Shown here: positions 1 through 20,000 of the stretch, in pieces | How the letters are laid out: every line of letters starts with the position of its first letter | Position numbering within the stretch: the first letter of the stretch is position 1 | From: Psammoneis japonica | Taxonomy: Eukaryota | Assembly: GCA_008632985.1 (NCBI GenBank) | Contig: QPGO01000296.1 | Span: 51,731 to 71,730 of the forward strand | Length of the DNA: 20,000 nucleotides | Direction of reading: 5' to 3' | The notes under the pieces: generated by a model | Databases searched by the model: none | Seen by the model: only the letters and a program-made list of their open reading frames with translations | Told to the model about the DNA's origin: nothing | Position numbers and translations under genes: made by a program

Positions 1-120
1 TCCGATGTTGGTTGGAGGTTCAAGCAGCAACAAATTAATGCAAGACAACCAACCTCTGCCATGGCACCAAATTGAAGCAACGGAGACTCTCTCCCGGGCA
101 CTTGCCAGCATGTTCATGCC

Positions 121-2400
121 TTGCACAAACAGAAATGGTTCCCTGGGCTTGACAAGAATGGTGAAATGCACACTGCTCATGGGGTTGGTCGTGCGAGCAT
201 CAAGAGCCACAAGCCACTTCAAGGTGCAGAGTTGAAGAAACACACGGCAACGTGTTTTCCCCATGGACATGTTCACTGTGTGCCCAATGTTGTTGAGCGA
301 GCTCTGAAACACAAAAAAGAAACAGCTGGCCAGCTGGCATCAACCGGAATGCAACAAGGTCAAAAACAGACCAACAAAAAGATGCAAAAGGCGGCAAAGG
401 AATTCGAGGTCCCTGCCAGTGCAAAAATTTCACTTGTCTTTCCTGATTTCTTGGACAGAGATGACACCTGAAACACTCAGTGTTTCAGGTGTGAGACAAA
501 CAAACTGGTGCTGTTGTTGGGGTCAAGACAATGTGCCCATTCTGCAAATCAAATGCTCATGTGGAGCACAAAGACAGGGCGGGATGCAAGGACAATGTGA
601 GGGCAACTGCAGGCCACAAGGAGAAAATCCCGCCAGTGGGGCCAATTGGATTGTGCAGCAATCAGACTTGTGGTGGACCAGTTGACAATTTGGAGAACCA
701 TGATTGCTGCTCGACGCACTCATTCACAGTCTGCAGTGAAGCCTGTTGGCAACAATGTCCAGAAGAGGTCAGGGAATGGTGTGACACCATTCTAAGAAAA
801 GACGCATCATCCGGAGAAAATGGACAAACTTTGGTGGCAGAGCAATTGTGTTGTGAAGTGCTGCATGACTCAACAATTTTAAAAAATCTGGCAGACAAGA
901 TGGAGGAAGTGCACCAACAGGCTGAGCGCAGGGCGATTGCAGCATGTGTGGCTTTCACTGAATCCCAAGGTGACCCCAACAGCTTGCCTGATTTTGGCAG
1001 TGATGATTGTGACAAGTTGTTTTGACCACCAAGTCACGACACATTTGGCAGTGTGTTTGATGCAGTGTTTGAGATTGTCTTGCCCTTTCTACATCAAGAC
1101 CTCTTCATGAGAACCCCAGGCTGATTTGTTCAATGGGACTCTGCTTTTGACTTTGCAAAGAAAGCAATGAATGACACAGAGTCAGAAGAGGAGTTTAAGA
1201 CAGTTGCCATTGTCTTTGGCGAGCATGGACACATTCTTTCTTGGGCATTTGCTCAAGCCAAGGGAAGCGTCATGTGCCAGCAACTGATGTGCTTCATCAA
1301 GAAGCTGTGAGCATCAAGGACAGATGGAAAATGAAGGCAACCACTGCATGAATGAAGTTGAGCATGGACACAGTGATGTCTGCTGTGAAGGACTTGTTGA
1401 TGCATGGGAACATTGGTTCCTCAAGCTGTGGCCAAAAGCGAAGGTGCCACCAATGAAAGATTTGTGGCATGGGGAAAAAAGGTCACAGACGGCACTTGCG
1501 GAACTTCTCACAAGCTTCGTGTGTCATTCACAAAGGGGCTGGCCCAAGCCTGCCTTGCACATGATGAAGATTCAAAGTGCTCAGTTGTCAAAAAGTTCAA
1601 GGAGGATGAAAATTGAAAGAGTGCACCAGGGGAAACAAGTCCATGTCGACCAAAGTGGCAATGTCGGCTGTGATGGATCAAAAGACGTTTGGGACAAAAG
1701 TGAAGAATTCTGTGCTGGAGCCCTCTGCAATGGCTGCCAATGTTCAAGATGCTTGTGAGAAAATTAAGGTGGAAGACAAGAGACTGTGACAAGAGGCCAA
1801 GGAATGAAGAGACGGACACTTGTCTTGCCTTTTGAAACCGTCGCCAAACGTGAGCCAAGGAACCGAGCTTGAGGTTCAGAATTTCATGCAGCACATTGAA
1901 AAAGGTTGTTTTGCCGACCCTCTTGGTGTTGATGACATTGACACAGAACTCTTGGATGATCCCCATCTGCACTGTGAACAACTGTGAGGAACTTCCCCAG
2001 GCAAAAGTGTGAACAAGTGTGTCAACAGACTTGCGGCGGACACCGCCATTCACGGAGCACCTCGAGTGCACAAGAGACTTTGGCTTTGAGCCACTTGGTT
2101 TGACATTGACAAAGACACCAAGCTGCATCACATTCTTGGAATAGAGAAACCACAAACTGTTGAGTGGTTCCTTCATGAGATGTTGTTGGGAAGGAAACCG
2201 AACCTCTCTGAGTGTTCTGGCACGGCATTCCCCCCAAAGCTTGAGCCTGATTGTGATGAGCCCGTGGGGATTGAGTTCTTGCCACACAAGCAATGGGACC
2301 GCATTGCAAATGATCTCAATGAATTGCAAGCAATCAACCTGTCTGAACAGCAGAAGTCATTGAAGGCAATGTGTGCATCTCAGCCTGCTGCCAGTTCATC
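121..2400 (+). pseudogene. Decayed DDE transposase-like gene with N-terminal Cys-rich region (resembles DUF6729-associated transposases); stops and frameshifts
   Basis: Motifs in expected order across frames: CPFC (~534), WDSAFDFAKK (~1134-1163), FGE[H=Y]GHILSWAF (~1215), [H=Y]SDVCC (~1369), KDLWH (DxxH, ~1456), HIEKGCFADP (~1892), [TGA=R]GTS (~1985). Family assigned from recalled motifs only; ends undefined. Confidence 0.55.
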
Positions 2401-3269
2401 TCCACCTGAGTCGCATCCAAACAATGGTTTGATGATGAGCGTTTCCCACTTGTCACAAGCTGAGTTGCCACAAGGTGAGCTTGCCCTGAATGCTGCTCAA
2501 CAGGAGTCAGCTGCGGTGCTGCCACTGGCTGCATTGCAACAGCATGTGTCGCAATCTGGAGTGGTGTCCCAGAATGTGCTGGCGGTGACTGCTTTGCTGC
2601 AGGCACCATCACGTGTTTTGCAACAACAAGTTCACAGGCATTGTTGTCTCAAGATCAGCAGGTAGCTGGGGTTGCAAAATGTGCTGATCATGGTCAGCTG
2701 CAAAGCATTTGGTCTCGAAATCTTTGTGCAATCAAATGGGTCTCTTTGCTGGACATCTGTCTCAACCCAAGGGAGCCTCTGACATTTTGTCAAGATCAAA
2801 TGTTTTTGCAGACATTGGTTTCTGCATCCAAAGTCACTAGCCTTGGTGAGGAGAAACTAAAAGCTGCAATTGCAGCTGCTTGGAGGGAACAATGCTGTTG
2901 ATTCTTTTCTGGCAATGGCACTGGCTTGGGAGGGCAAAATGTGACTAGAACATGTCACTGTTTTGTTGAAAGAGAAAGGCAATCGACTGCTTCAGATGCA
3001 ACCAGGGCTTTCAAACAGTCAGCAACCCATGATTTCTCACATGGGCAGGCCGCAGAAGCAAATTTGACGAGAAGATGTTAACAAACCATCGCACGCTCAG
3101 TTGGGGGATCTGTTGAGACAATTGCCGGGAAGGAGCATCCGGAGCACCAAACAAGCCCGTGTGGAAGAGTTGCAAAAAAGAGTTTTAGGGAAAGCCATGA
3201 GACTTCAATTTGACACTGTAGATGACACTGCATCAACATCTCTCTCTTCCTCTCTTCTTTCCCTTTTTT

Positions 3270-5240
3270 AAACTTCAGGGGCGCCAGAAGGGCACCCCCC
3301 TTTTAAACTTTGCATCCACAAAAATCCCCAGACAGGGAGCTGCAGGAGTGGGAGGAAAGAAGGGGCACGTGAAACAGCACTCAGGGCATTTGAGAGATGG
3401 AAGTGGAGCAGAAGGAAAGGGGAGGGAGGAGAGAAAGCAAAGGGTGTGGGAAGAAGAGTGATGGACAATGTTGCAACTGACAGTTTAGATGGCCCATTGG
3501 GAGGGGGGGAAGAGCGGTGGGAGCTGCCAAAGCAACCAGAGGAAAGCTGATTCCATGCACAATTGGCAGATGGGAGAAGAGCAGATGGGGAGGCAAGAGC
3601 GCAGGAGAAGGCATTGAAGGAAGCAGAGGAGTGTCACAGGAAGGAGGGGTTGAGCCAAGGGGGTTTGGGCTGGGAGCATGGGGAGGGAGAGGAGGTGCCA
3701 AAGAGGAGCCAGTGGAAGAAGCAGCCAACAAGACCACCCAGGTGATCAATGGTTGAGGGAAGCAGATGTGTTCCACTGGCACTGAGGAATTGGATGGCAA
3801 GAGAGCCATCAGAGGAAGAGGTTGAGGGGCCTCAAAACTTGGACCTTGCACTTGCACAGCGTGCCTCAGTCAAAAGAGAAGATGAGGGGGAGGCAGACCA
3901 GGTGGAGGGCGAGGGGGGGCTTTGGGGACAGTGACGTTGATGGCAATGTGTTGATGCTGAGAAGGAATGGCAAGGGAAGCAGGGGGAGGGATGGCAATTC
4001 CTGCATCAGCTGGACAGAGAATGGGCCAATGCAGCAGAAGGTTTGCAGGTTTGAGGTGGACGTAGGTGGAGGAATGACAGAGCTTGGACAGGGGGGGCAA
4101 GAGTTTGTGCAAGGATGAAAACAGTGTCCCGTGTGCCATTGGAGAGCTTGGACTTGTCATTGCACTTGCACATGAAGGTGTGGTCACCGCAGGCATCAAG
4201 GGAGGTGTGGCCACAGGGACAAGGAGAGTCAATGAGGGAGGAGGGAAGTGCTGGAAGATGCAGCTTGCGTTGGATGGCTGTGGTGCACTCATCAGAGGAG
4301 AGGCGGGAAGAGGCAAATCAGGAGGAGAGGTGGTGAAGCGGCAGGCTGGCAAGGGGCAATGGGAGGGAATGGAGAGCAACTTGGATGGCAGGAGGAGCAT
4401 CAGCAAGAGTGGCATGATGGTGTGTTGTTGGTGGGCATGATGAAGGTGGCAAGCAAGTCCAGGGAGCCTCATTGACTTGACCAAGGTGGGAAGATTTGGA
4501 GCAGCCAATGAGGAATCAGAAGAGAGCACAGAGGCAAAGCAGCGAAAGAGAGTGTGAAGGCACAGGTTGGAGTGGGAGTTGTTCCAGGAAGAGAGAGAGA
4601 GAGAGAGAGAGATGGAAGCAGTGCAGGAGCTCAAGGCTGTCCCCAGAAGGGAGCTGTGCACCGTGACAAGTGAAGCGGAAGGAGAGCAGAAGAGAGATGA
4701 GGAAGGAGGGGCTGGCGGCAGCAGCAGGAACACACAGGCCCAAGCCACACCAACGGAGGCAGGGAGAAAGGCAATGGCCAGGGAGTGGGGAGGTGGAGAA
4801 TCAGAGTGGGCAGAGGCGCAGTGAAGGAAGTGATGGATGAGGTCCAGAGGAATGGGTCAGGCGGGTTGTCAGGGTCAAAGTTGCAGTGGAAGTCGGTCCA
4901 AAGGAGGTGGGCAGAAGAAGGCACAAAGCAGTGTTTGAAAAGTTGAGCTTGAGTTTGCTTGTCACGTGGGCAAGGCAGGAGACCGTCAACCTCAGCAGAG
5001 AGGGAGGAAGAGACATCAGAGAGGAAGAGGAGTTTTGGCAAAAGCACAGGAGCCAAGAGGCTGTCCGAGGAAGTGGACAACCAGAAGTGAGCTCGGGGTT
5101 GTAGGAGGGGTCAACAGAAGGGTTCAGGAAGGCAAGAGCATTGCACAGGGAGGAGGCATTAGATTGGGAGAGAGAAGAAAGTGGGCTGGTGCCGCTGATG
5201 GAAATGAGGATCTTGTTGTCAGGGTGTCTTCATGGGCATG
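3270..5240 (-). mobile_element. 5'-truncated, degenerate CRE-like non-LTR retrotransposon (end of RT, CCHC knuckle, restriction-like endonuclease)
   Basis: Minus-strand translation gives FLGQPLGS (~5050-5075), LFKHCFVPSSAHLL, AIQRKL[H]LP (~4255-4280), CPCGHTSLDA[C=Y]GDHTFMCK...SNG.RD (~4125-4222), L[C=R]PADAGI...IAINVTVP (~3925-4020), LLPSTIDHLGGL (~3730-3765), PSQWAI (~3490). Boundaries approximate. Confidence 0.75.
4590..4611 (+). repeat. (AG)n microsatellite inside the LINE remnant
   Basis: About 11 AG units seen directly. Confidence 0.9.
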
Positions 5241-5390
5241 AGCACCCGGAACCAAGATGGCCCAAAAAGCCAAGCCAATTTTTGAGTTGACATGTGGCTA
5301 ATCTTCACCATGAAATCTGGGACGGTTTGCCACTTTCAAACAGATGACAAAGATGTAGCATGGTGGCTTTTGCAACAATGCAAATGAACA

Positions 5391-5667
5391 ATGCTTTGCT
5401 GGAGGCTGGTTTTGACAGTCTGGATGGCATGGCTGATGCCCTGCTTGATCATTCCGGTGGCTTCAAAGATGCAACGACAGGCTCTGCGAGAACTGGGCCT
5501 TGAAAATGGCTCTTTCACACAGCAAGAGCTCAAGAAAGCCTGCCGTGCACGAAGCCTTGAAACACATCCAGACAAGGGCGGCTCACACGAAGCCTTCATT
5601 TGTGTTGCCCTAGCTTGCAAATTGCTCTCTGGTTCAGGCACTCACAAGTTCCAAAGCAACGAGCGTC
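5391..5667 (+). pseudogene. J-domain (DnaJ/Hsp40-type) gene, 5' half, interrupted by Copia insertion
   Basis: Hydrophobic N-terminus, then ALRELGL...ELKKA[C=Y]RARSLETHPDKGGSHEAFI.VALA[C=Y]KLL with the HPD motif; frame runs into the TSD/LTR at 5663-5668. Confidence 0.85.
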
Positions 5668-6891
5668 TGTGGGAAAGTGGCCTGAATTCTGGGATTCGTC
5701 TGCACTTTCAGTGATTAAAAGCTGCAATTGCAATGCAACAATCAATCAGCAACTTTGCACCAAAAGTTGAGAGGTGACAATCGACACGTTAGAAAGACCA
5801 TGAGCAGTTTTTATGAGCAGATTCAGCTGCCATCTAAAAGAAACGCGAAGTTGGGCTTGGTCTGCAGGTGAACCAAGCCGGATCGGATCGCCGGATCGAC
5901 TCCTTCACAACCCATTAAAATGTTAGTCCATCGAGTCAAAAAAGTCGATCCGGGGCCTTTGTGGGACTGATCCGCCATCTCGGATCGGATGTCGTGTCGA
6001 ATTTGGAAGATTCCGTGCCGTCATCATGACAATGGCGCAACATCACCCGATTGTGACACAGGGCGGCATGAGATTCAGCCATGAGGGCACAGAACTTCCT
6101 CAGCATTGCAGCCTGAGTCTTTCCATGCTTGAAATGGAGATGAAAAGGTCGCGTGGCTGTGAAACAGCTTGTCAAACCGATGATGCCATAAAGATTTGTT
6201 GGAGAAACATTGAACAAGCAAAACAACAAGTGTTCATTGTGCAACTCGAAATTTCAATGCAAAAACATGGTGTCAGTTTCTCAACTGCAAAAGTGATGGC
6301 TTTTTCTTCCTTGTTGTTGGTGCAAACACTGAGTGACAATGATGCTCAATGATGTGGTCAAGCAAGCATGTAAAGCAGCAACAAAAGTGCAGTTCTGTCA
6401 TCATGTTGTCTTGTCATGACAAGATGTGAAGCATCATGGCCACACTTGTTGTTGTTCGCTTTGTCAGTGCTTTGTTGTTCTTGGGAGTTTGGAATCTTGA
6501 AACTTGTGTCATTTTGCGACTCATCAAAATGTCGAATCCGATCTGTGATCCAATCCGATTCCACCTGTCGACTGACAGAACTCTGACGTGATCCGATCCA
6601 TTGATCCGACCCGGCACGGTTCACCTGTAGACTGAGCCTTAGACACGCGCGAATCTGAGAACAAACATCGCATTCGTGACTCGGGTTCCGCGGGATTCGA
6701 GACTGAGTGTCACACACGGATTTGAATCATGGATCTGAATCAACCAATCAGGTTGAGTTTTCTTGATTCTGACTGCTGTTGCTTGTGGGGAGGAATTGCC
6801 CTTCATGCTCATCAATTCATGACCAAAGGACATGACTCGTGGAGGTTCGATGTTGTTGCACAAAACATGCAAATGTGGATGTGTTGTCACA
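5668..6891 (-). repeat. 3' LTR (436 bp net, interrupted by a MITE at 5854-6638)
   Basis: 5668-5853 plus 6642-6891 align to 12842-13267 with ~24 substitutions and 4 indels (manual alignment); starts TGTGGGAAAG, ends GTTGTCACA. Confidence 0.93.
5854..6638. mobile_element. Non-autonomous PIF/Harbinger-like MITE (785 bp) nested in the 3' LTR
   Basis: 36-bp imperfect TIRs 5854-5889 / 6603-6638 (GGCTtgGTCTgCAGGTGAACC.. vs GGCTcaGTCTaCAGGTGAACC..), flanks TTG (5851-5853) and TTA (6639-6641), subterminal GATCC/GGATC repeats; absent from the other LTR (empty site ~13028). Confidence 0.85.
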
Positions 6892-6899
6892 CTCCCTTC
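6892..6899 (-). other. Polypurine tract of the Copia element
   Basis: Minus strand reads GAAGGGAG immediately before the LTR start TGTGACAAC. Confidence 0.8.
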
Positions 6900-6934
6900 A
6901 ACAACATTGGGTGGAATGATGACTCAAAAACGTC

Positions 6935-8968
6935 TCACCACTTAAGAAGTGACTTCCTGTGCTTGACGAAGAGGTTTTGTGGCAGAGGTTTGGCGAAAAT
7001 GTCTGCAATCTGACTCGCCGCATCAATTGGTGGGATTGACATGAGACCCTTGCGAACATGATCTTTAAAGTGGTGGAGCATGAGGTTGAAGTGCTTTGTC
7101 CGAGGATGCATCTCAGGCAACCTGGCAATCTCCAGTGCTCCAGAATTGTCTTCAAATGCCTTGCAGTGCATGACAGGTGTCTTGGAAGGGACATTGTGAC
7201 CATGACTCATGAGTTCTTGAACAAGGTTCATGATCGGAATGGCACTGCGAAGACTTTCCAAAAGAGTGACAAATTCAGCCTCGGCAGTGCTGAGAGTGAT
7301 CAGGGTCTGCAGCTTGAATGTCCAGACAATGGGACATCCGGCACAAGCAATGACAAACCCAGTTCTTGATTTGGAAGTGCCGATGTCATCAGGTGCAGTC
7401 AGTTTGTTCCAATTGCCCGCGAAGTCCGCGTCAGCATGAACTTCAAGGGACTTGTCTGTTGAGGGCTGTGGAATGACACCTTCATTTCTGGTTTCGCAAA
7501 GGTGCTTGCAGAGCCACAGTGCGGCCTCACCATGAGAAACCTTGGGATCAGATGAAAAACGTGCGATCTGATGCACTGCGCAAGCGATGTCTGGGCGAGT
7601 GCTCTTCTCCAGAAAATTGAGCTTGCCGACAATGGAGCGGTGGTGAAAGCTCCCTTTGAAGCTTGGCTCACTCATGTGCCTGTGGAGAATCTTGGAGGAT
7701 GGAGCCGGTGTTGACTTGTTGGGTGCTCTTTCAGGTGAGTTCGCCATCTCCAGCATCTGATTGACAAGATGCGGTTGCACAAGTTTCATTCTGCCATCAG
7801 GCAGTGTTTCAACGTTGATGCCGAGACAATCATCCAGAGCACCCTGATCATCAACATCAAAATTTGCATCTCTGACATCTTGTGTGGCTTTGACAACTGC
7901 AGTGTTGTCTGGCAATGCAAAGATGCCATCATCCACACAACACACAAAAATCACATTGTCACGGTGACAGAGGCACTCGTCGACTGCCGATTGCATGAAG
8001 CCAATCCGCAGCAAGCCATCATGTGAGTGTTCTTGCCATGCCCTGCCTGCTTGTTTCTGTCCATGTAAATTCTTCAGCAATTTCAGAACATGAGTCTTGC
8101 CATTGCCACATTTTCTTTCAACTCCTGCAGGCAAATCCACACACATGTCATGTTCGGCATCAGCCTGTGGATGTGCCAATGCGAAGTCAACTTGGCGTGT
8201 GTGCCACTTCTTGAGGATGGCTGTGATCAACACAAGTCGGATGGTGAACCAGAAGACGATGGAAGAGCAGGTCTGGAAGCAGTTGACTGCATGCTCTTGC
8301 TTTCCACCATGCACATTGAGTCGGGACTTCCATTTGTAAATGGCACAAGTTTTGATGTCTCTCTTGCACTTCATTGACCATGTGGAGGGAAGAATGTCAA
8401 CATCATCAGGTGCGTCTTCACGTGGCATGAGTGCCCAATGCTTCTTCTCAACATGATCATTGACCTCTTTGATGCAGGCCTTGACAAACTCGTCTCGGTC
8501 AGGTTCGCACATGGCTTGATCAAAGCACACGAATGAAGCAGGTGAGTCCATGTTGTCCTGTAACTTGCAATCATCTTCATGCATGGCATCACAACACTCC
8601 TCTGCCTCTGCTGCACAGGAGACAATGCCTTGAGCCCTCTGGATCTGGCTTTCGCGCATCCTTTCGGTCGGGCGTCGTTGTTGGCTGGACCCACTGACAC
8701 TGGGCTGACCCATGGCATGCTGTGGCTCAGGAGGCAATTCGTCATCATCTGGAGGTACACACAGCTCCTCTTCTTCAGGTTGTGATGTGTCAGCATCAAA
8801 AGAGTCATCCACAGTGGGATCAGAATGCTGCAGCTGAGGTGGGACATCCGGACCCGGCTCAGGCAGTTCTGGTGGAGCAACAGGTTGCTCCCTTGTTCCT
8901 TTTGATCTCCCAAAGATGTTGAGTGACTGTTTGGTTTTGCTTGCTTGAAGCCTGTGATGCCTTGCCAT
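6935..8968 (-). pseudogene. pol: Copia pol: reverse transcriptase + RNase H (open frame, catalytic motif mutated)
   Basis: WSMKCKR...KWKSRLNVHG, QVDFALA, LLKNL[H]GQKQAG, V[CC]VDD, D[C]LGI, RPDIA[C]AV, [H]ADADFAG, SRTG, LSTAEAE, EDNSGA, RTKH, ADIFAKPL. Confidence 0.95.
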
Positions 8969-9000
8969 TGTGCAAATGTTGATGGATTGCCAGCAGAAGG

Positions 9001-9960
9001 TCAGACCGTCTCAAAAAAGTTGTCAAACTGTGCGTGGAACTGCGGCGATGCGAGTCCGGTTTGTAAATTCAAAACCAAGGCAACTGATCCTGCGTGTCTT
9101 GTTGAAGGTCCCAGATTGATTCCCAACCTTGCTCTTGGATCCCATTTAGGTGCTCCACCTCCTCCTTGCAACCAGTTGTGCAAAGCGTAGACTGGGCATC
9201 CAAAAGCATGGTGCTGCTTGAGGTCAGGCTGAACCTTGACCGACGTGAAACGTTCCAAAGGAGAGGAACCATCCTCATGGTCAGGCAAGTGGTTCCTGAT
9301 CTTGTTCGAGTTTCTTAAAGCGCTTGGCCACAAATTTGTCTCTGTTGCAGATGGCCATCTAACCTTTGCATGTAAGAGCTGTTTTCTTGCTTGCTCTTGC
9401 AGGTCCCATGTTCGTTTTTCCGTGATGCCATTTTGAAAGTGAGCATTGACGCCACAGTGCGAGATTGTCTGTTGTTGTTTCTCCACGTCTTGGATGAATG
9501 CATTGTCAGCAAATCTCCCGTTGTTGGCATGATGGTGTTTGATGCAAACATGGACTCGTCGTGCAAAAGCCTTGAAGGAATGTTTGGCCTCAAGTGTCTC
9601 GTCCGAGGTGAGTCCCCTCTGTGAGTGTGTGCATCCCAATCCGCTACAGTGATCAACAAATGTTGTTGCTGCTCAATGCCTTTGCTTCGCAGGTCTCCCT
9701 TTGAGTTGAGGGATCAGTCCAGGAGTCAGACTTTCAAGCTGGTCAACCGATGCAGCCTCTCCAGGCAAGGTTGCCAAGTGGATGTGTCTGTTCCACTTGG
9801 ACTTGGAGCACCATGGTCGTTTTGTCATGGCACCATGCAGGCAGCCGGCGCACTTTGGGTTGTGCACCTTTGTAAGGCGTCTCGGCAGGATGCCTGGGGT
9901 GGCCATGAGCTTGATCATTTTGAATGACATGTGGCCTGGGCGGTGATGCCAACACAACAA
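9001..9960 (-). pseudogene. pol: Copia pol: GAG-pre-integrase HHCC finger and integrase core, frameshifted
   Basis: WHHRPGH...CAGC, SVDQL, HHANNGRF (from YHADNGRF), HFQNGITEKR, LWP, FGCPVYAL, KWDPRARLGINLG, SPQFHAQFD. Confidence 0.92.
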
Positions 9961-10379
9961 TTCACCTTGGTTGTCAGCAGCGGCTAAGGCATCATCATCT
10001 GGTGTGATGTTGATGGGTTCCGGTGGGTCCTCCTGAACCTCCGGTGTCACAAGATCCATCAGGTTCTCCTCGTCAGAGTCAGAGCAACTCGCTTCATCAG
10101 TTGGCTTGAATGACTGAGGTGCACTCACATCAGTGTGGTTGTGTGCGTCTTGCATCTCGGAAGGACGTGTCTTGGAAGGACTTCTGAAGATGTCTTGTTC
10201 AATTGCAGTCTCAGCATCGTTTGCAATGCTTTCGTTGTCAGGTGGCATGACATGAGCCTGACAGGCCATGTGCTCAACATTTTCGATGTGAGTCTGTTGT
10301 TCAACAGTGGCTGCAAAGGTCCGGCATTTGTTGGAACCAGGTGCGGAGTGCATCTTGGCGACATTGGAGTCATTGGACC

Positions 10380-10770
10380 ATGGAATCAAGCGATGGCACT
10401 TTCTCTGATCCCACACTGGCATGAGTCCATCGTCTCTAGTCCAGGACACGGTTCCGTGAGGCTCAGGTGTGTGGTTGCCGGCTTGTTGACTCCATTGTTG
10501 GGGGCAAAGGAGACAGTGAGGCAAGTCCAGTGCGAGCAGTGCATCTCGAATCTTGATGTTGTGCACTCATCCCATGTCATCCTCAATTGGCCACTGTGCT
10601 GTTCCTTCTCCCTTGGCAGGCAAACAACCTTTGACACCAAGCACCACCTCACTCATCTTTCAAACAGGACCAATGAAGTGTGTCTCGTTGTTCGACATGG
10701 TGCAGGAAGAGTGGGAGTCAACACCCATCATGAATGAGTCCGAGTTGCAAGTGGGTTGCATCTGCTGAGG
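10380..10770 (-). pseudogene. pol: Copia pol: aspartic protease region, frameshifted
   Basis: SDSFMMGVDSHSSCTMSN...FIG followed by CLLCPQQWSQQ, at the expected position between gag and integrase. Confidence 0.7.
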
Positions 10771-11168
10771 ACGGCATGGAGTGGTGGCACTGCAAGCGGA
10801 GACCATCTTGTAGCGCACAAGGACGTAGTGAGCCTTCTTGTTGGCCACACTCTGGAGCAGTGACCTGGCTGCGTTGACGTGTGATGCTGTGCGCAGCACC
10901 TCGTCGTTGGCCGTTGCTGGCAAGTCTGAACTGGTGGTGTGCTCATGTCAACTGGGATGTGTGAAAGAATCCACTCACCCAGTGTCATCACAGCATCACA
11001 CAGCAACTTACACTGGCTTGAAGGAAGGGACAGCATCACGAATGAGAGGATGACCCAAATCGGGGCCGCAAACTTCATGACGCCAGAGACTGATGTCAGG
11101 AGCAGTGACGCAACAGCGGCCATCTGTGGGGACAGGAGGAGCGTCATCAGAGCTGATTTGATGGCTGG

Positions 11169-12771
11169 TCACTCTTGATCCACTTCGTTTGGAATGGCAG
11201 AAATGGCACTAGCGAAGGCGACCTTCTTGTCGGATGTCTCGTTGGAGGATGAAAGTTGTTGCTTGCGGAGTCTGCACCCAAACTTTCCCGGATCATCAGG
11301 CAAATGAATGACCCAAGCCATGTGGCAAGTGCACCAGTGACAGTTGCAATTGTTGACATGCTTGTGAAAGTGCTGATGTCCATTGACTGTCTTCTTAGGT
11401 GCACCATCCTCAGGCGGAACTTTCTTCCAGGCTTCATCAGCCTTCCACTTCTGGCGTGGAGCAGTCTTGGTCTTCCTTGACTTTGTGCTTCTCTCCTTTC
11501 CTGAACCTGCCTTGGCCTTCAGAGCCTTGGACAGCTGAAGGTTCTGGTCCTTGATTGAGCCCACCTCAGCAGTGAGTGCAACGATCTGCTCTTCAGCTGG
11601 TGAGAGTGCTCCCCACTTCTCATCTTGCTTGAGGTTAGTGTGCTTGTTGAGCACCAGTGACATGATTTGTGTTGGCATGAAATTCTCACCATTGTTGCAC
11701 CTGTCCTTGTGTGGGGTGATGCATTTGACAAATGCTTCGTCAGCAGCAGCGGCGCATCCTTTAAAAAGATTCACAATGAGGTCGTCGCACTGCTCGCCCC
11801 TTGCTGGCAGCCCATCAACGTTGAGCTTGGCACACTTGTTGAACTCTTCCATGTCCAAGTTGACAGCTGCCATGTGTGCATCCAGGCTTGAAAGGTTCTC
11901 ACAGAAGTGGTTCGTGGTTGAACGGGTGTCGACGACAGCTTTCTGAGTGAGCAGCTTGAAGAACAGTGTGCCAATTTGGTTTCCATTGATCGTGCACAAA
12001 TCAATCTCATCAAGTGTCCTGTCCCTTGCTTCTTCTGTCAAGGACTGAGAGATGGCTTCAGCCATTTGCACATTGTTCTGTGCTTGCCATGTTGGAAGAT
12101 CGGCAAAAGTGGTGGCATGAGCTCTCACGTCCTGAAGAGCAAGCAATCCACACTCGGAAATAAGATCTCAAGGAGCTCCATTCATGTCGGGAATGGCAAG
12201 CATGTCTCCTGTCCCTGTTTTCCATCCTGCTTTGGCAGCTCGTTGACTGAGCATCTCACAAAAGCGTTTGAGCCCTTCAGAGTCTCCGTTAAACTCGTGT
12301 GGCAGTGGACAAGTGGCAGCGTTCTCCAGAGCTTTGGGCCTTGCGACATGCCGCAGTCAATGAAATCATTGGGGCGGCGTTGACCTGGGGTCAAAGCAAA
12401 GATTGGCAGTGGACAAACTGGCAGAGCACTGCCTGGTCCTCCTGGTGGTGGAGCACCACCTCCTCCACCTGGTGGAGGAGCGCCACCTCCTCCTCTCCAG
12501 GTGCAACTGCTGGGTTGACAGGAGGGTTCACCGGAGCAGCTGGAGGAATGATGGGAGGCACAGCAGCAGCTGGAGTGGCTGCAGATGGAGCAGCTGCTGC
12601 AGGAGCAGCAGCAGGAGGAGCTGCTGGAGCAGGAGCAGCAGCAACAGCAGAAGCTGCAGGAGCAGGTGCAGCAGCAGGGGCTGCAGCAGCGGCAGCTGCC
12701 GGAGCAGCAGCTGGAGCCGGAACTGGTGCGGCAGCAGCTTGGGTGGTCGCAGTTCGTGTCTGTACGACCAT
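11169..12771 (-). pseudogene. gag: Copia gag, frameshifted, with Ala/Pro/Gly-rich N-terminus
   Basis: ATG at 12771 (MVVQTRTATTQAAAAP), FALTPG...FID[C=Y], GTLFFKLL...VDTRST, NLFKG[C=Y], WKKVPP...HWC..H..W..H knuckle-like motif; 325-aa ORF 11169-12146. Confidence 0.85.
12430..12740 (-). repeat. Low-complexity GCA/GCT/CCT-rich coding tract with a duplicated ~26-bp unit
   Basis: Poly-Ala/Pro tract; CCTGGTGGwGGAGCrCCACCTCCTCC at ~12441 and ~12468. Confidence 0.8.
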
Positions 12772-12841
12772 TGCAGGGATTAAAGCACAATCGAACAGTG
12801 GAGTCGATTTCACTTGTCTTGCAGTTTTCGCAGAGGAAGCG

Positions 12842-13267
12842 TGTGGGAAAGTGGCCGGAATTCTGGGATTCGTCTGCACTTTCGGTGGTTAAAAGCTGCA
12901 GTTGCAATGCAACAATCAATCAGCAACTTTATTGCACCAAAAGTTGAGAGGTGATAATCGATACGTTAGAAAGATTATGAGCAGTTTTTATGAGCAGATG
13001 CAGCTGCCATCTCAAAGAAACGCGAAGATAGACACGCGCGAATCATCTGAGAATAAACATCGCATTCGTGACTCGGGTTCCGCGGGATTCGAGACTGAGC
13101 ATCGAACACACGGATTCGAATCATGGATCTGAATCAACCAATCAGATTGAGTTTTCTTGATTCTGACTGCTGTCACTTGTGGGGAGGAATTGCCCTTCAC
13201 ACTCATCAATTCATGACCAAAGGACGTAACTCGTGGAGGTTCGATGTTGTTGTATAAAACATGCACA
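12842..13267 (-). repeat. 5' LTR (426 bp)
   Basis: TGTGGGAAAG...ATGCACA followed by TSD GCGTC; lacks 18 bp present near the outer-equivalent end of the other LTR. Confidence 0.93.
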
Positions 13268-13680
13268 GCGTCATCACGATCGTACAAGTCGAGATCGTGA
13301 TAATCAAGAGCAACGTGGAGAACGACAAGAGAGGCAACAATGGCAACAACAAAAGCAGAATAATGAGGAATGTTCGAAGAAGCAGCAGGCATGCTCTTTG
13401 ATGACATGTTTGAAGACTTTTTTCCGGAAACTATGCTGACGTTTTCCTGGACAAGATCTTTCCACAAAAAAACTTGACGCGAAACCACGGGTTTGCCAAA
13501 TGCTGTCTTCGCTGGGCTGTTGATCGCCTTACAGACAAGGCTTTGTGTCTGTTGGAAGAAAGCGAAGTGTCCATTCACATTGATGGCCGCACCTGCTTTT
13601 CAGCATCTAGTTTTAGAGAGTGGCGAGACCGCGTTCGTCAGAGGAGACAGAAAAAGCAACAGCATCATTCTGAATTCTAG
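13268..13680 (+). pseudogene. J-domain gene, 3' half
   Basis: Removing the element and one TSD gives in-frame ..SNER|HHDRTSRDRDNQEQ..; after apparent frameshifts it reads MFEEAAGMLFDDMFEDFF..NYADVFLDKIFP..RQRRQKK, stop at 13680. Confidence 0.65.
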
Positions 13681-14622
13681 AATAATGCTACAACATTGTC
13701 AGCAAATGACGAAGAGTGCATGCATCCCACCATGATGGCCCGCATTGTTGTTTCTCCAATGTTTGTGCAGTTGAAAATGTAGCGTTTGTCGAGAGCACCT
13801 GGCGAACTTCCATTTGTCGACTAGTCCGGTTTGCGATGGACAGCCGGAAAGCCAGTAAAACAGGGTGAATGGGTTATCAGCAGCAAGACCAAACTAGTCA
13901 CCCATGTGTTTCGAAACGGGGAATGCTCACGCTTCAAAAACAAAGCGGTAGCCTGGTCCTGTGTTCAGGGACAACACGGATGCATCATCTTCCTTGACCT
14001 TGGTGTGGAGTAAGGATTGTCCAAAGCATATGTTGGCGGACCAATTTTGAAAGGAAAGCTGTCGACTGAACAACGTTAATCTCGCCGCATCATACACTGC
14101 AAATAATAGAGGTCTAACTTACTACGTGCAACCATTGCTGTCAATAGTGCTCCGAGTAGAGCTCACTTCCTTGACTGGCGAATGCATTTAGACCAGCAGG
14201 ATTGACGAAACGAACAAACGACACAACGACTCGAAGAATTATTGTCGGTTGACTGACGAAGCCGACCATACCGGAAGCCATACAAGGCCCAACGTCATTT
14301 TCTTACCAGAAGACCCGCGTGCAAAAACCTCTTTTGTGCCAGCCAAGAAACTCACGAAGCCCTCGCGGCTAGGCACAACTCGAGGTCTCCTAGGAACGGA
14401 GACGGAAGGAATTGCATGTGGTGGATGGATAGATTCGAGCAAATAAAGTAGCAAACGGAAAGACGATTCAAAACAAAGTTTTTGTGCGAAATGGTAAATT
14501 GTGGCAGCATGGCAAGCAGCATAATACATTCAGCACTAGCAGCAATGAACATCTAGAATAATTATGTTGAGTCATACAACCAAAGTTTACTGTTTTCGAA
14601 AAACGAAGCTACAGCGACTATT

Positions 14623-15637
14623 TCACATTCCTGGAACAAATCGATCAGGTCGCTTTCGTTTTCTTCCGGTGTTCCTGTAGCTAAACAGATCTGGCTTTTC
14701 ACAAAGCAAGGAGTAAACAATGCCCACTCTGGACATGTCTGTATTACGCCCCCCACTTTGGCCAAGACATGTGCCCAGAGAGCTGGATTAACAGTGTCCT
14801 GTTTCAAAAGTTGTCGCCCATGCGCTTCGATCACGGCTTCATGACCCTCATCGACAGCGGCGTCCAGCGGTGTTTCTCCATCCACATCTTTTGCGTCAAT
14901 GTCAGCTCCGCGTTCCAACAGGAGTCTCGCCATGCTTTCGCTACCTGACGTGCCTGCTGCATCATGCAAATTTGTAAGCCCCACCTTGTCAATCTCGATG
15001 ACTCGCGCCCCTCCATTCTCCAAGAGAACTCGCGCTGTGTTTTCCCTTCCGGCACTTGAAGCAAAATGAAGAGCTGTGCCACCCACTGTGATTGACTTCA
15101 AATCTACGTCGGCACCATTCTGCAGTAGTAAAAAACACACACAATCGTGCCCATAATACGAAGCTAAATGAAACGGCGTCAAACCACCGTTTCCAGCTTT
15201 GTCATTGACTGCCGCGCCGTGCGACAGAAGCACACGAGCTGTGGATGCACGCCCGCGAAGGCACGCCAAGTGCAAGAGTGTTACTCCAAGTGACCGATCC
15301 ATCACGCGTGCTCCAGCATCCAGCAGGAGTTGCACTTTGCATCGCGATTGCTTACAGCCGCAGAACCGACAACATCAAAAAGGATGGGGCTTGGACCACC
15401 ACCATTCATTCGGTTCACAAGCATGTTCGGATCGGCGCCGCGCAAAAGTGCACGTCGAACTGTGCTGCCGTCACCCAAAACGTTTGATTCTAGGATTTGA
15501 TCCAAATCCATGTCTAAAGTGACACGTTGTGATGAGAAGTGAATGGAATGGAGCCGCCGTCGACCCTGTGCTGCTTGTTGCTCTTTGCTCACGGCTGACG
15601 CCGCTGCCAGCGCTGCGACGCTGTTGTCACTTGTCAC
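14623..15637 (-). pseudogene. Ankyrin-repeat protein gene with two apparent frameshifts (pseudogene or indel errors)
   Basis: GVTLLHLAC..LLSHGAAVN, GLTPFHLAS..LLQNGADVD, GGTALHFAS, GLTNLHDAA..LLERGADIDAKDVDGETPL. N-terminal LLRGADPN lies in another frame (shift ~15335); tail VYSLLCEKPDL..RKRKR lies in another frame after a C6 run (~14750). Confidence 0.85.
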
Positions 15638-15669
15638 GCTAGCTCCGTGTGCGTTTTGGTTGTTCGAGG

Positions 15670-16513
15670 CACAGGCTCAGATACACTACTAGGCAGGACA
15701 GTAGAAAATCAACATTTACAATAATTAAGAAATTTTTATATTTAGCAAATGACGTGATTTTCAAGGATATACTTCCGGGTTTTTGGCGATTTCTGCCGGG
15801 TTCCTTTCTGTTTCGTGTACCGATTTTGGGTGTTTCACCACGGCGAAGCACGACGACAATGATGGTCGAAATACGCTGCAATGCAAGTGGGGCCGTCGAG
15901 CGCCGACCGTGGGAATCTCATTAAGTTGGTATTATAGCACACGTTTCAGGTGTCGGCGCTCGACGGCCCCACTTGCGTTATGATGAAATTATCGACGGCA
16001 TGTTGTCATGGTCGATTTTTTTTTATTCTGCCGCGCCGGGAAATCACAATCTCTCCGTAGGATTCTACGCTCTTTTTGTACGGAGCCTTCGACGACCGAC
16101 CTATCGTCATGTCGTTCGCAGACAGCGGCATAAAATAGAATGCATGCCTGGTCTGACAATTTATACATCCTCGTTGGGGCTGTCCACATTTCCCGATTGC
16201 AGCTCCACTGTGTTAAATTAGTGCAGAGCGATCGTATGGTTGCGACAACAAGAACCACAAGCAGCAACAGTAACACAAAAACGTTCTGATTTCTGAAACA
16301 AATTCGGTGGCGCTCATCATGTGCGCTCTGGTCGAAATTTCCAACGGAAGCTTCTCCGTAGATTTCTACCTGACTGGTGTCCGTTGGTTAAATTTAGTAT
16401 ATGAAACTGAAGGTCCTATTAGTTATGTTCATGTATAATAAGCATTTCAGATCCGTGCTTTCCAAGTAGTCGGAGTATACATTGTCCTGCCTAGTAGTAT
16501 ATCTGAGCCTGTG
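15670..16513. mobile_element. Non-autonomous TIR element (844 bp), 7-bp TSD, possibly P superfamily
   Basis: 31-bp TIRs 15670-15700 / 16483-16513 (CACAGGCTCAGATAyACTACTAGGCAGGACA, 30/31 identical); TTCGAGG at 15663-15669 and 16514-16520; no transposase ORF. Confidence 0.88.
15883..15976. repeat. Perfect 25-bp inverted repeat with 44-nt spacer
   Basis: GCAAGTGGGGCCGTCGAGCGCCGAC (15883-15907) is the exact reverse complement of 15952-15976. Confidence 0.95.
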
Positions 16514-19439
16514 TTCGAGGTTCGCGGCGTTCACTCCCGGCTTGGGAGGTCTGTAATTGCGCGGCGTTGTGCTGGGTGCGAAGTAGTCGAGTGAGTCGTC
16601 GCAACAAACCGACCAACAGAGCACAAGCGCCTCTGTCAAATTGTGCTTCAAACTGGAGCCCTTGCCGCACTCATCCCCACTTGCAGCACCCAGCACCCAG
16701 AGACATGACGCAGCATTGTTTTCTGTCATTCCAGAGCTGCAACAACATTTGTGAAAACCACCCACGGCTTCTTGGATTCAGCAGCTGCAGTGCTTTTGGC
16801 TGAACATTCTTCAGCAAGCGGGCCAGCGTGTGCTGCGCTCACATCTTCGCTGGAGTCAACATGTGCGCCCGCTTCTCCCGCCAACACAAGGGGAGCTTGT
16901 GCAATGCACTTTCCATCCAAATTTTTACCTTGCTCTTTAATGACACTGTTGAGTTGACTGAGTGATTTTGCATCTGAAATTTTGGGTGCTCGTTTGACTG
17001 CTGCTTCTTCTGCTGCTGTGCAGCTGTCGTCTGTCATTTGCGCCAGTGTCATGTTCTGACATGCACTTTGCAACCTTCACCAACAAAAGCTTGGCAAAAC
17101 TTTTGACATTGTGTGTTGTGCTGTTTTGGAGAGTGCAGCATGCAGGAAACAATGCCTTGCAATGGCTCATGATGTCTTTCTTGAGGCAAGTCTGACCTCA
17201 GTGCTGGGGGTGCAATTTGCAGCCATGAGAACAAACAACCACTTGTTGAGGGATGTGCTCATCAAGGGGTCAAAGGCAGAAATCAGTGTGGTTGCTCAGC
17301 CCAGATGTTGTTGCTGCCAAGATGCATCTGCAGCTTGAATCTTGCATCCTGGCAATTCGCGTCTCTGCAGATGCAGGCAAAATGATCAGTCATGGTTGAC
17401 ACAGTCGGCCGGACAAGAAGTGCATGTCTTTTCTCTTCTGTGGTGCACACTTTGTGTTGCAACCATGTCAGAGCATGTTGTTTGATTTTTTTGTTTTTCC
17501 TCTCAAACTTGGCCTGTCAAAGGGGTTGCCCGTGTTGATTGTCAACACTGGATTTTCATCTGTCTGCAAATGTTGGGTGAACCTTCCAATCATCTCGAAG
17601 GCACCAAGCTCCCTTCAGTTGCCACGTGCATGGGTGCATCACATCCTGTGCAAAGTCCCCCATGTCTGCGCGCTGGGTGCACCCTGCCTGACCACCCCAC
17701 AGCAGCTTGCAACTGCATGACAACATTGCTTCCGCCTTTCCATTGGTGTGGACCAAGGAACACCCAAAACATGTGTTGGCAGAAGAGTTCCCAGTGGAAA
17801 ACATTGACTGAGCAAGGACCATCTCACAATGGATGACTGTGACATGCTGAAATGGATCTCATGACCATGTCTGGTGCATGAAATTTGACCAATGGAGATT
17901 GGCATAACAAGCAAACTGCCAGCATTCCACTGCCCAATTGACTGGAGAACTTCTGACAAGAAACAGAAACAGACTGCCCCACACTGTGCTGCACTGCACT
18001 CACAGTGGGCCAACTCATCATGACAACCACCAAATGCCCACAAAAACTCTCAAAATCAAATCTGTTCTGATTGGCCTGATTTGAATGCTGATGCGATCTC
18101 CCTTCTTGATCTCTGGCACCTCGTGAAAGAAACACTTGAGTTGAGAACTTCTGCCTTTGACACATTCATTGGGGATCTCAGAAATGGGCCACTGGTTTTT
18201 GTTTAGAAACAGCAAACATCTGCAATCTCCGCTGGTTGCTGGGATGTTTCCAATCACAATGCACGGCATTGGATCATCAGCAAAAGAAGCTGTAGATGCC
18301 TCCAATGCAGAGCAGTCATTTGAATTTTCAAAAATGTGAAACAGCGGCTCCGATGCCTGGTCTCCCACTGCTCTGGCGAAAGACAAAGAATGGGATGTTT
18401 TGGCATCAAGACAATGTTGATCAATGTAGAGATCCAAAGAGAGCACAAGGAGGGGCAAGTTCTGAGTTGGAAGCTTGCAAAATGCCATGGGAAGGGCACC
18501 ATGTGACACCAGGTGGGACTCCTTGCTTCCATTGTTTCCCACTGAGATGCAGGAATTGTTTTTGAGGAACACAGCATCATTGGGTGAGCCACAGTCGACA
18601 GCATCTGAGTCATGTTCCCAGTCATTGAACAACAGTTTGCAGCAAATGCAACTGCTGACTTGCAATGGATGCACACCTTGCATTTCAACCTGCAAGTGCA
18701 CAGATTGTGCCTCTGACTTGACCCACCCTTTGTCTGGCTTAAAACTCGAGGCAATCCGGCCAAGCACAAGATGGTTTGCACCTTGGTCATTGCTGGATTC
18801 AATCATTGCCCCACCCTTTGCAAGCTTTGGGTCAAAGGTTGTGGGCAGAAAGTCAGTGTTGCTCTTGTGGCACAGTTCAAGGAATTTGGATGGATCCCCT
18901 CACAACTCTCCACAAGCACGGAAATTTGCGTGCCATGTTTGTTTGGCATTCTCACCTCCCCATGCTCTGTGCAAAGCATGTCACCCTTTCATGACGAGAC
19001 GACCTTGGCTGCGGAAGCAGTGCACTGCAGAAAATGACTTCCACCATGTTCATTTTCACTGATTTGGTGGTCTTCTTTGTTGCGTGGATCAAATGTGCCA
19101 CATCAGAGAATCGTGTGTGTCCAGTTGTTGTGTGGCTTGGCATTGTGATCATTCACTTTGAGTGCAAATCTGCACAACTTTGCAAGTTCGTCATGACACT
19201 TTTCTGCATGCCCAGAGCCAGGAGACAGAGTTTTGCCTGCAATGGCTGCTGGTCAAAAGAAGACAAGGTGAGTTCTGCTTTCTTGAACTTCCATTTCCCA
19301 TGGAATTGACTTTTCTTTAGATTTTGATTTCCACCATGATGTTCCCAGTTCCATCACTGTTGAGTGCCAGTGGCCGCAAATGAGGCACACTGATCAGACT
19401 GAAAGGTGACAAGCTCTTGACACAGCCCTGACTGCACGA

Positions 19440-19832
19440 GCCATGAGCAAACCTCTGGAACCAAGAAACAATCTGCTTCCACCTCCAATCAATGGGTTCT
19501 CACTTTGAATCTGCAATTTCTTGCAAAAACACCAAACCACATTGGAGATGAGAGAGCAAGTCACAAAAGGCCACGGGGTTGTGGCTCAGGCATGTGTGAT
19601 TTTCTTCATCCATGGGATTCAAGGGACTCCAAGCATCCTTGAGCATGCAGCAAATGGGTGAGCTCTCATCAAACTTTTCCAAGATGGATTTTGGGTTTGC
19701 GTGTTTGCCGCCAATGTTGAGATGCAAAATTGGAGCTTGGGGATGAGAATCTGCAGCAGCTTTTAGTTTCTTGTTCTTGGAGCTCAAAATGCTGCCAGCA
19801 GGCTCTCCTTCTCCTTTGCCCATCGGCACCAT
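19440..19832 (-). pseudogene. BTB/POZ (KCTD/T1-type) domain gene, hypermutated and frameshifted
   Basis: ILHLNIGGK..KSILEKF..MLKDAW..DEENHT[C]LSHNPVAF.DLLS[H]LQ[C]G, then in a shifted frame LEVEAD[C=Y]FLVP; probably continues below 19440. Confidence 0.7.
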
Positions 19833-20000
19833 GTCAGTGCAACATCAAATGTCAGCAGTGTCCTTCTGACTTCTGATTGCAGAGAAAGAACAGAGAAAGA
19901 GTGATGAGTGATGAGAGACCACTGCCAAAGCCACTCAGCATTGAACATTTGAAGGGAGTGGGGGGCGCATTTGCAGAAGTCAATTGTCAGCTGCTGCTGC

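Follow-up and report, generated by a model that had tools for sequence, protein, structure and literature searches.

Tract-wise, TpA-specific A:T-to-G:C hypermutation of transposon DNA in the diatom Psammoneis japonica and its flanking-base rule

Our analysis of a 20,000-nt stretch from the diatom Psammoneis japonica (assembly GCA_008632985.1, 91 Mb in 597 contigs; contig QPGO01000296.1, positions 51,731 to 71,730, forward strand), called the window below and numbered from its first letter, together with related transposon copies in the same genome, showed that TpA dinucleotides of mobile DNA are changed by a process that makes only transitions, works on DNA after insertion and in tracts, and hits both strands equally. 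Its preference per adenine reads (A>G>C>T)(A>others)-T-A-(C≈T>G>A)-(not A). We are highly confident that a targeted DNA process with this flank rule exists.

The range 1–12841 of the window is a nest of mobile DNA made up of a single-copy decayed stretch, an element resembling long interspersed nuclear elements (LINE-like), a Ty1/copia element and a DNA element with terminal inverted repeats. It holds 60 TAs (rho(TA) 0.077), compared with 120 in the spared DNA at 13261–16560 (rho 0.54). A sequence-only reading of this range had counted about 50 surviving TAs, mostly YTAR; the count was too low, while the class bias is real, with 35 of the 60 survivors in YTAR, the only class that by simple logic contains no TAY on either strand. 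As that reading had also seen, GTAR/YTAC comes next (19/60; 16 GTAR and 3 YTAC) and TAT/ATA is nearly absent (4/60, with the T at 2142, 5812, 6189 and 12161); the remaining two survivors are GTAC. Composition was corrected for by relating survivors to the pool of TA, TG and CA sites sharing the same flanks. Survival did not become uniform (YTAR 35/674, GTAR/YTAC 19/741, GTAC 2/170, TAT/ATA 4/1086; chi2 48.3, 9 degrees of freedom, p 2e-7), and the bias therefore stands. The ranking recurred upstream on this contig, where 19 kb of TA-poor DNA gave 43/1011, 29/1069, 1/265 and 7/1765 for the four classes as listed. The YTAR share of TAs was 28/120 in the spared stretch and 41/252 in a copia-family copy rich in TA. 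The 19 GTAR-class survivors of the window (TACA 15, TACG 3, TACC 1) are a slow subclass.

Because each surviving TA, being palindromic, mixes the fates of two adenines, we compared natural element copies to obtain direct rates. Fifteen full-length copia relatives are 1–9% divergent and carry 94 to 286 TAs each. We used alignment columns at which three TA-rich reference copies agree, and scored five heavily hit copies; L044 (which shares a tract with L040) and the lightly hit L031, L034, L037 and L043 were kept out of these five-copy fits, and L035/L036, a subfamily, were treated as a separate pair. Inside the mutated tracts A>G was found at 676/1750 TA adenines (38.6%) and at 16/2443 AA, 18/3028 CA and 9/3055 GA adenines (0.3–0.65%), so that AA>AG, whose being as frequent as TA>TG would have refuted the earlier inference of a T-A-Y target, is about 59 times rarer. 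Nearly all changed TA sites in the tracts were transitions (688/691), with three transversions. A competing-risk fit gave per-adenine rates, relative to TAA as 1, of 4.6 (2.9–7.1) for TAC, 4.1 (2.7–6.5) for TAT and 2.0 (1.3–3.4) for TAG, where the intervals are bootstraps over sites and sites recur between copies, so that event counts are not independent. The TAT/TAC ratio was 0.88 (95% bootstrap 0.67–1.09). Flanks further out also matter: a base other than A at -2 lowers the rate to about 0.6, the order at -3 is A>G>C>T (T 0.40), and a base other than A at +2 raises it 1.5–1.7 times.

The same rule appeared in five comparison sets: copia, the copia subfamily pair, a DNA transposon (23 loci taken out of 76 matches), a LINE-like family (9 of 18 copies, noisy since the reference itself is TA-poor) and the right-hand block of the window. 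In the latter, comparison of 16561–20000 with the partly TA-rich copy L098 gave TAC 30/45, TAT 21/47, TAA 13/34 and TAG 4/21. Both TAY contexts exceeded both TAR contexts in 5/5 sets, TAC was at least equal to TAT in 5/5 and TAG exceeded TAA in 4/5; the CA rows of the unfiltered sets run too high because of CpG decay in the reference. At ATAC/GTAT sites, where one strand reads TAC and its complement TAT, the TAC strand was favored 87:45 (25 sites vs 9, with 3 ties), a contrast partly confounded by the -2 base. The earlier inference that the edited context is 5'-T-A-Y, with an enzyme-like rule, is thus borne out, but its ranking of TAT above TAC fails per adenine, and its placing of TAC far above TAR was overstated, as TAG runs at about half and TAA at about a quarter of the TAY rate. 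We also considered TACG as the preferred motif, as in bacterial TadA, and rejected it (10.6, against 12.0 for TACC and 14.0 for TACT).

Why, then, is TAT/ATA lost first? TA is a palindrome, and the loss of a site is therefore the sum over its two adenines. YTAR survives because both of its adenines are poor targets, and TAT/ATA goes earliest mainly because both strands are good ones, TAT on one and an adenine aided by A at -2 on the other. Applied to 7503 old sites (149 still TA), the model from the five young copies reached an area under the receiver operating characteristic curve of 0.80, with a log-likelihood of -645 for the full model, -697 with the +1 base only and -731 for the null. At the same time, several points weigh against this reading. 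Old TAT/ATA survivors were fewer than predicted (12 seen, 21 predicted), CTAC/GTAG survivors more numerous (30 seen, 14 predicted), and the survival of TACG and TACA in old DNA exceeds the young-copy prediction, TACG not being slow in young copies. The ranking with TAT first keeps some descriptive truth for old DNA, perhaps through TA regrown by C>T. In old TA-poor DNA (the window and C293 upstream of it) survivors numbered 14/386 for TACG, 37/1573 for TACA, 6/896 for TACC and 2/996 for TACT.

Changes outside TA are few. Seven non-TA transitions separate the long terminal repeats (LTRs) of the copia element in the window; three are CpG decay (5710, 6723, 6832) and four are not (5714, 5727, 5798, 6752). 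The claim that all non-TA A/G differences between these LTRs fall at ApT holds for the four non-CpG ones and fails at 5710, which is CpG decay and not at ApT. Among sister LTRs of the copia family, 8/11 non-TA, non-CpG changes are at ApT, against 29/92 of the sites (p 0.006). Inside the copia tracts the spill-over to adenines not preceded by T follows the 3' base, with VAY at 39/3972 and VAR at 4/4554, and within VAY there is no difference between VAT (19/1940) and VAC (20/2032); compared with DNA outside tracts, VAT is 3 times and VAC 5 times higher, and VAR is not raised. In the DNA transposon VAT reaches 42/790 and VAC 13/437, with AAT the leading context (27/254). The non-TA changes are therefore a weak side activity that keeps the 3' pyrimidine rule, ApT only partly. 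A tandem change TAAY>TGGY was tried as the origin of the ApT changes and showed no enrichment (copia 4/250, DNA transposon 4/100).

These data also bear on the speculative link to symmetric N6-methyladenine (6mA) at ApT, by which the mark would single out adenines that are then deaminated or mispaired. The LTR differences at ApT, both in the window and in the family, and the excess of VAT over VAC in the DNA transposon speak for it, but TAC at least equals TAT, VAT equals VAC in copia, and ApT is not depleted (rho 0.87 in affected, 0.91 in spared DNA). In species with AMT1, 6mA is, in the available text of PMC12695648, highest at SATS, least at TAT/WATW and associated with permissive chromatin, a profile that does not match hot TAT and cold GAT (3/722) and CAT (9/669) in the copia tracts; for Phaeodactylum the same text gives 5-methylcytosine only. 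A search of the genome returned no MT-A70 match, a weak result as no positive control responded. The link is thus contradicted, and we consider a 6mA-based origin very improbable.

In the five heavily hit copia copies the changes lie in kilobase tracts with sharp edges, TA loss being 72–83% inside and 0–6% outside. Tracts in L033, L041, L045 and L042 are partial, with edges within the element and more often sparing one end; lightly hit copies are mostly affected towards the gag end. L044 and L040 share one mutated tract (35/37 changes in the same direction), possibly by gene conversion, as recombinant progeny of a mutated copy, or as an assembly chimera. Sister-LTR differences in 15 copies fall at TA in 61 of 87 cases, and the process therefore acts after insertion. 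Copies of the DNA transposon are all-or-none, 15 having 33–42 TAs and 8 having 0–8, and the 8 converted ones of these 23 follow the same rule. Changes in tracts split evenly between strands (393 observed, 395 expected from context, of 685). Sister LTRs, strand symmetry and the converted DNA transposon together exclude RNA editing and reverse-transcriptase (RT) error.

Could these patterns arise with no special mutator, from composition, stop-codon avoidance, GC-biased conversion or assembly error? TpA is indeed under-represented in most DNA, and our controls gave rho 0.54–0.70. As many as 182 TA changes nevertheless separate near-identical copies, concentrated in sharply bounded tracts where other changes are few. 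Public short-read contigs, possibly from the same sample, reproduce about 10.4 kb of the window in eight pieces with one differing letter, so that the pattern is not an assembly artefact. GC-biased conversion is not known to be dinucleotide-specific, and we regard this explanation as extremely improbable. Outside this genome, metagenome loci with a related copia RT were not TA-depleted (0/7), which carries no information because a peptide-pattern search favors unmutated copies.

Targeting appears to follow chromatin. CG>TG changes were 2.9 times more frequent inside tracts (67/2689) than outside (31/3545), and converted copies of the short DNA element touched TA-poor flanks in 8/8 cases, unconverted ones in 7/15 (p 0.019), from which we infer that tracts reflect chromatin domains. 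Two unconverted copies (L051, L060) lie within TA-poor DNA, which suggests episodic action. Multi-copy elements are in part untouched, and the stretch at 300–2900, for which a genome search returned only the self-match, is strongly depleted of TA and CG, though vanished partners are possible; present-day repetition may therefore not be required. The LINE-like family (L094:2760-6521, with relatives L079–L097) has few TAs throughout, the richest copy reaching 17 TA per kb; with a 1252-aa RT frame (RVT_1) in L094, it is possibly a lineage that survived or avoids the mutator.

As a mechanism we propose that a host mutator would turn A:T into G:C at TpA over kilobase tracts after insertion. Its substrate would be silenced, probably CG-methylated transposon DNA, and the tracts would correspond to methylated heterochromatin, to judge by the 2.9-fold CpG decay. 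The least certain step is the chemistry: deoxyadenosine may be deaminated to inosine by an enzyme of the TadA/ADAT2 fold on transiently opened DNA, and replication would then fix the inosine as TG in one daughter or CA in the other. A deoxyadenosine deaminase of the TadA/ADAT fold has, in our estimate, an even chance of being the mutator. We know of no natural enzyme that changes A to G in chromosomal DNA at such a scale. In the tRNA substrates of ADAT2/TadA, the invariant U33 precedes A34, reminiscent of the strict 5' T seen here. Among the genes of this diatom are a TadA-like one (C38) and an ADAT2-like one (C26), both with zinc motifs and with putative activity on DNA; the latter presumably has N at the position matching amphioxus ADAT2, as read by eye. 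According to PMC10354150, amphioxus BjADAT2/3 is the one natural precedent, with ADAT2 deaminating deoxyadenosine, and N at that position is widespread in eukaryotic ADAT2, activity on DNA being sporadic. TadA-derived editors (ABE7.10, ABE3.1, ABE8e-YA), as described in the available portions of PMC12528748 and PMC10188366, likewise make A>G on DNA, prefer YAY to YAR and disfavor AAA.

Other facts weigh against such a deaminase. The TadA editors, which are engineered and guided by Cas9, accept a 5' C, whereas here CA adenines are changed about 65 times more rarely than TA adenines, and amphioxus ADAT2 favors GAA, TCG and hairpin loops (same sources), whereas GAA was changed at 1/728 in the copia tracts and hairpin-loop adenines were not favored (relative rate 0.77). 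The deaminase genes found resemble housekeeping enzymes by their sequences, none being singled out as a likely mutator, and a deaminase fused to a chromatin domain was found in none of 12 frames scanned. One deaminase domain is fused to a 2OG-Fe(II) dioxygenase in a single open frame (L103:313-1785, minus strand). Tandem dCMP-deaminase-like genes occur on two contigs with equal scores (G000:C41:505477-506590 and C317:55748-56795), likely a haplotype duplication in the assembly.

The attacked base, taken to be the A in the earlier reading, may be the partner T: whether written A>G in TAY or T>C in RTA, the change is one event, and sequence leaves the two indistinguishable. If T in 5'-R-T-A were modified (e.g. 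oxidized) in silenced DNA and then paired with G or were repaired to C, all counts would fit equally well. No T modification is known to be so mutagenic or so specific for TpA, which counts against such chemistry, and a genome search gave no Tet_JBP match, weakly so as no positive control responded. Hydroxymethyluracil and base J do occur in other protists (mentioned in the available text of PMC12695648). Overall, thymine chemistry seems to us unlikely.

An enzyme of the ADAR/ADAT1 fold that edits DNA paired with RNA, in R-loops or RNA-guided hybrids, would be another source of A>G. There are two A_deamin (PF02137) loci, C40 and C79, the C79 paralogue being conserved across diatoms; ADARs favor a 5' U (PMC3113232, available part); and AAT, the best non-TA context in the DNA transposon, resembles a 5' order of U>A. 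The same part of that paper gives human ADAR a 3' order of G>C≈A>U with 5' A well tolerated, but here 3' G is poor, 3' T is good and AA is 59 times worse than TA, while editing of element RNA is ruled out by the sister LTRs, strand symmetry and DNA transposon. We therefore think an ADAR-type origin improbable. The second ADAR/ADAT1-fold gene (L114/L115, G000:C79:344558-345390) is on record with the deaminase domain alone.

A comparably low probability goes to an error-prone Y-family polymerase which, like DNA polymerase eta (Pol eta), inserts G opposite template T at WA while repeatedly resynthesizing silenced DNA, perhaps downstream of repair at methyl-CpG mismatches. WA hotspots with TA>TG as a typical change are described for Pol eta (PMC7884765, in the portion available), AAT is foremost among secondary sites in the DNA transposon, and tracts coincide with CpG decay. 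However, AA is equally named there as a Pol eta hotspot, and here it was changed at 0.65% vs 38.6% for TA. Transversions were only 3/691, strand-coordinated runs were found in only 1/10 copies (p<0.05), and other errors were almost absent from tracts that had lost about 77% of their TA sites.

Repeat-induced point mutation (RIP) of ascomycetes is tied to cytosine methylation. It resembles the process described here in its transposon-directed, context-specific, tract-wise transitions, a parallel already named in the available text of the Bigelowiella preprint (bioRxiv 10.64898/2026.01.13.699255). Its direction is reversed, as RIP creates TpA from CpA while here TpA is lost and CA/TG gained; moreover, here there are no strand-coordinated runs, multi-copy elements can escape and a single-copy stretch is depleted. 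A closer relative is the TpA hypermutation of integrated nucleocytoplasmic large DNA virus and virophage DNA in Bigelowiella natans (Mettrop et al., bioRxiv 10.64898/2026.01.13.699255). As far as its main text goes, that process changes A:T to G:C almost exclusively, does so at TpA and on either strand, is confined to regions, is not constantly active and targets foreign silent DNA; in living lines it raises the de novo rate about 1000-fold, ADAT2 is proposed as the enzyme, and RT and DDE genes are enriched among TpA-poor genes. The corresponding features here are A:T>G:C in 688/691 changes, TpA restriction with a small VAY spill-over, and an integrated, regional and non-constitutive target. 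The two studies differ in that ours concerns a diatom and three transposon classes and infers the process from copies rather than mutation-accumulation lines, and in near saturation, the flank rule and the minor VAY spill-over. The main text of the preprint gives no flank rule and no diatom, although its figures or supplements may show flanks. Our literature searches returned no diatom report of TpA hypermutation and, for the phenomenon, this preprint alone.

The features of the window are listed in Table 1. In the leftmost stretch, a Pfam match was found for none of three open reading frames tested in 1–3200, nor for a Cys-rich frame at 495–1025. The DNA transposon retains 6 TAs, vs 33–42 in unconverted copies, and is presumably a PIF/Harbinger-type miniature inverted-repeat element, a label suggested by its termini and 3-bp TNA flanks. 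The copia internal region matches RVT_2 (1e-22), gag_pre-integrs (1e-8) and SH3_retrovirus (4e-5) and is 78–81% identical to the young family in the same genome. At the tract edge, 12842–13260 holds 12 TAs, 9 of them containing TAT/ATA. Within the spared zone, 31-nt inverted repeats at 15670–16513 surround an 843-nt TA-rich element, seemingly an untouched short mobile element. The copy homologous to the right-hand block has a 2.5-kb TA-rich island (L098:3000-5500) with TA-poor flanks.

Table 1. Features of the window (coordinates in nt)
Feature	Position	Strand	Remarks
TA- and CG-depleted decayed DNA	1..3200	.	0-6 TA per 500 nt; rho(CG) 0.2-0.4
Decayed RT-bearing (LINE-like) retroelement, TA-depleted	3300..5560	-	65-71% identity to multi-copy family; approximate ends
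Copia LTR, left part, copy inside transposon cluster	5668..5850	-	direct repeat of 12842-13027, 94-96%
Non-autonomous DNA transposon with terminal inverted repeats, inserted in LTR	5854..6638	.	splits inner copia LTR
Copia LTR, right part	6640..6872	-	repeat of 13045-13265, 92-94%
Ty1/copia internal region, TA-depleted, broken	6873..12780	-	gag-like, gag-pre-integrase, SH3, RVT_2
Second copia LTR, tract edge, partly spared	12842..13265	-	adjoins host DNA with ankyrin gene
Spared host DNA, control	13266..16560	.	120 TAs, rho 0.54, YTAR not in excess
Ankyrin-repeat frame	14562-15374	-	Ank_2 5e-30
Second TA-depleted block, beyond 1-12841	16561..20000	.	10 TAs, rho 0.04; survivors YTAR 5/10

These results place demands on any candidate enzyme, which must yield TAC≈TAT > TAG > TAA, near-zero editing of CA and AA, and faster change when A stands at -2 and a purine at -3; the flank rule already argues against models of the ADAR, Pol eta or 6mA type. 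One tentative reading is that diatoms and chlorarachniophytes have an old genome-defence pathway in common: a natural deoxyadenosine deaminase strictly specific for TpA (motif ~R-A-T-A-Y-B) would be recruited to CG-methylated chromatin domains and erase most TpA of mobile DNA in single episodes. If true, this would mirror RIP with A-to-G changes and amount to an adenine base editor of natural origin, and finding the same rule in the 231 Bigelowiella mutations would point to one pathway across Stramenopiles and Rhizaria. In genomes of this kind, dates estimated from LTRs and the annotation of repeats are also distorted by the process.

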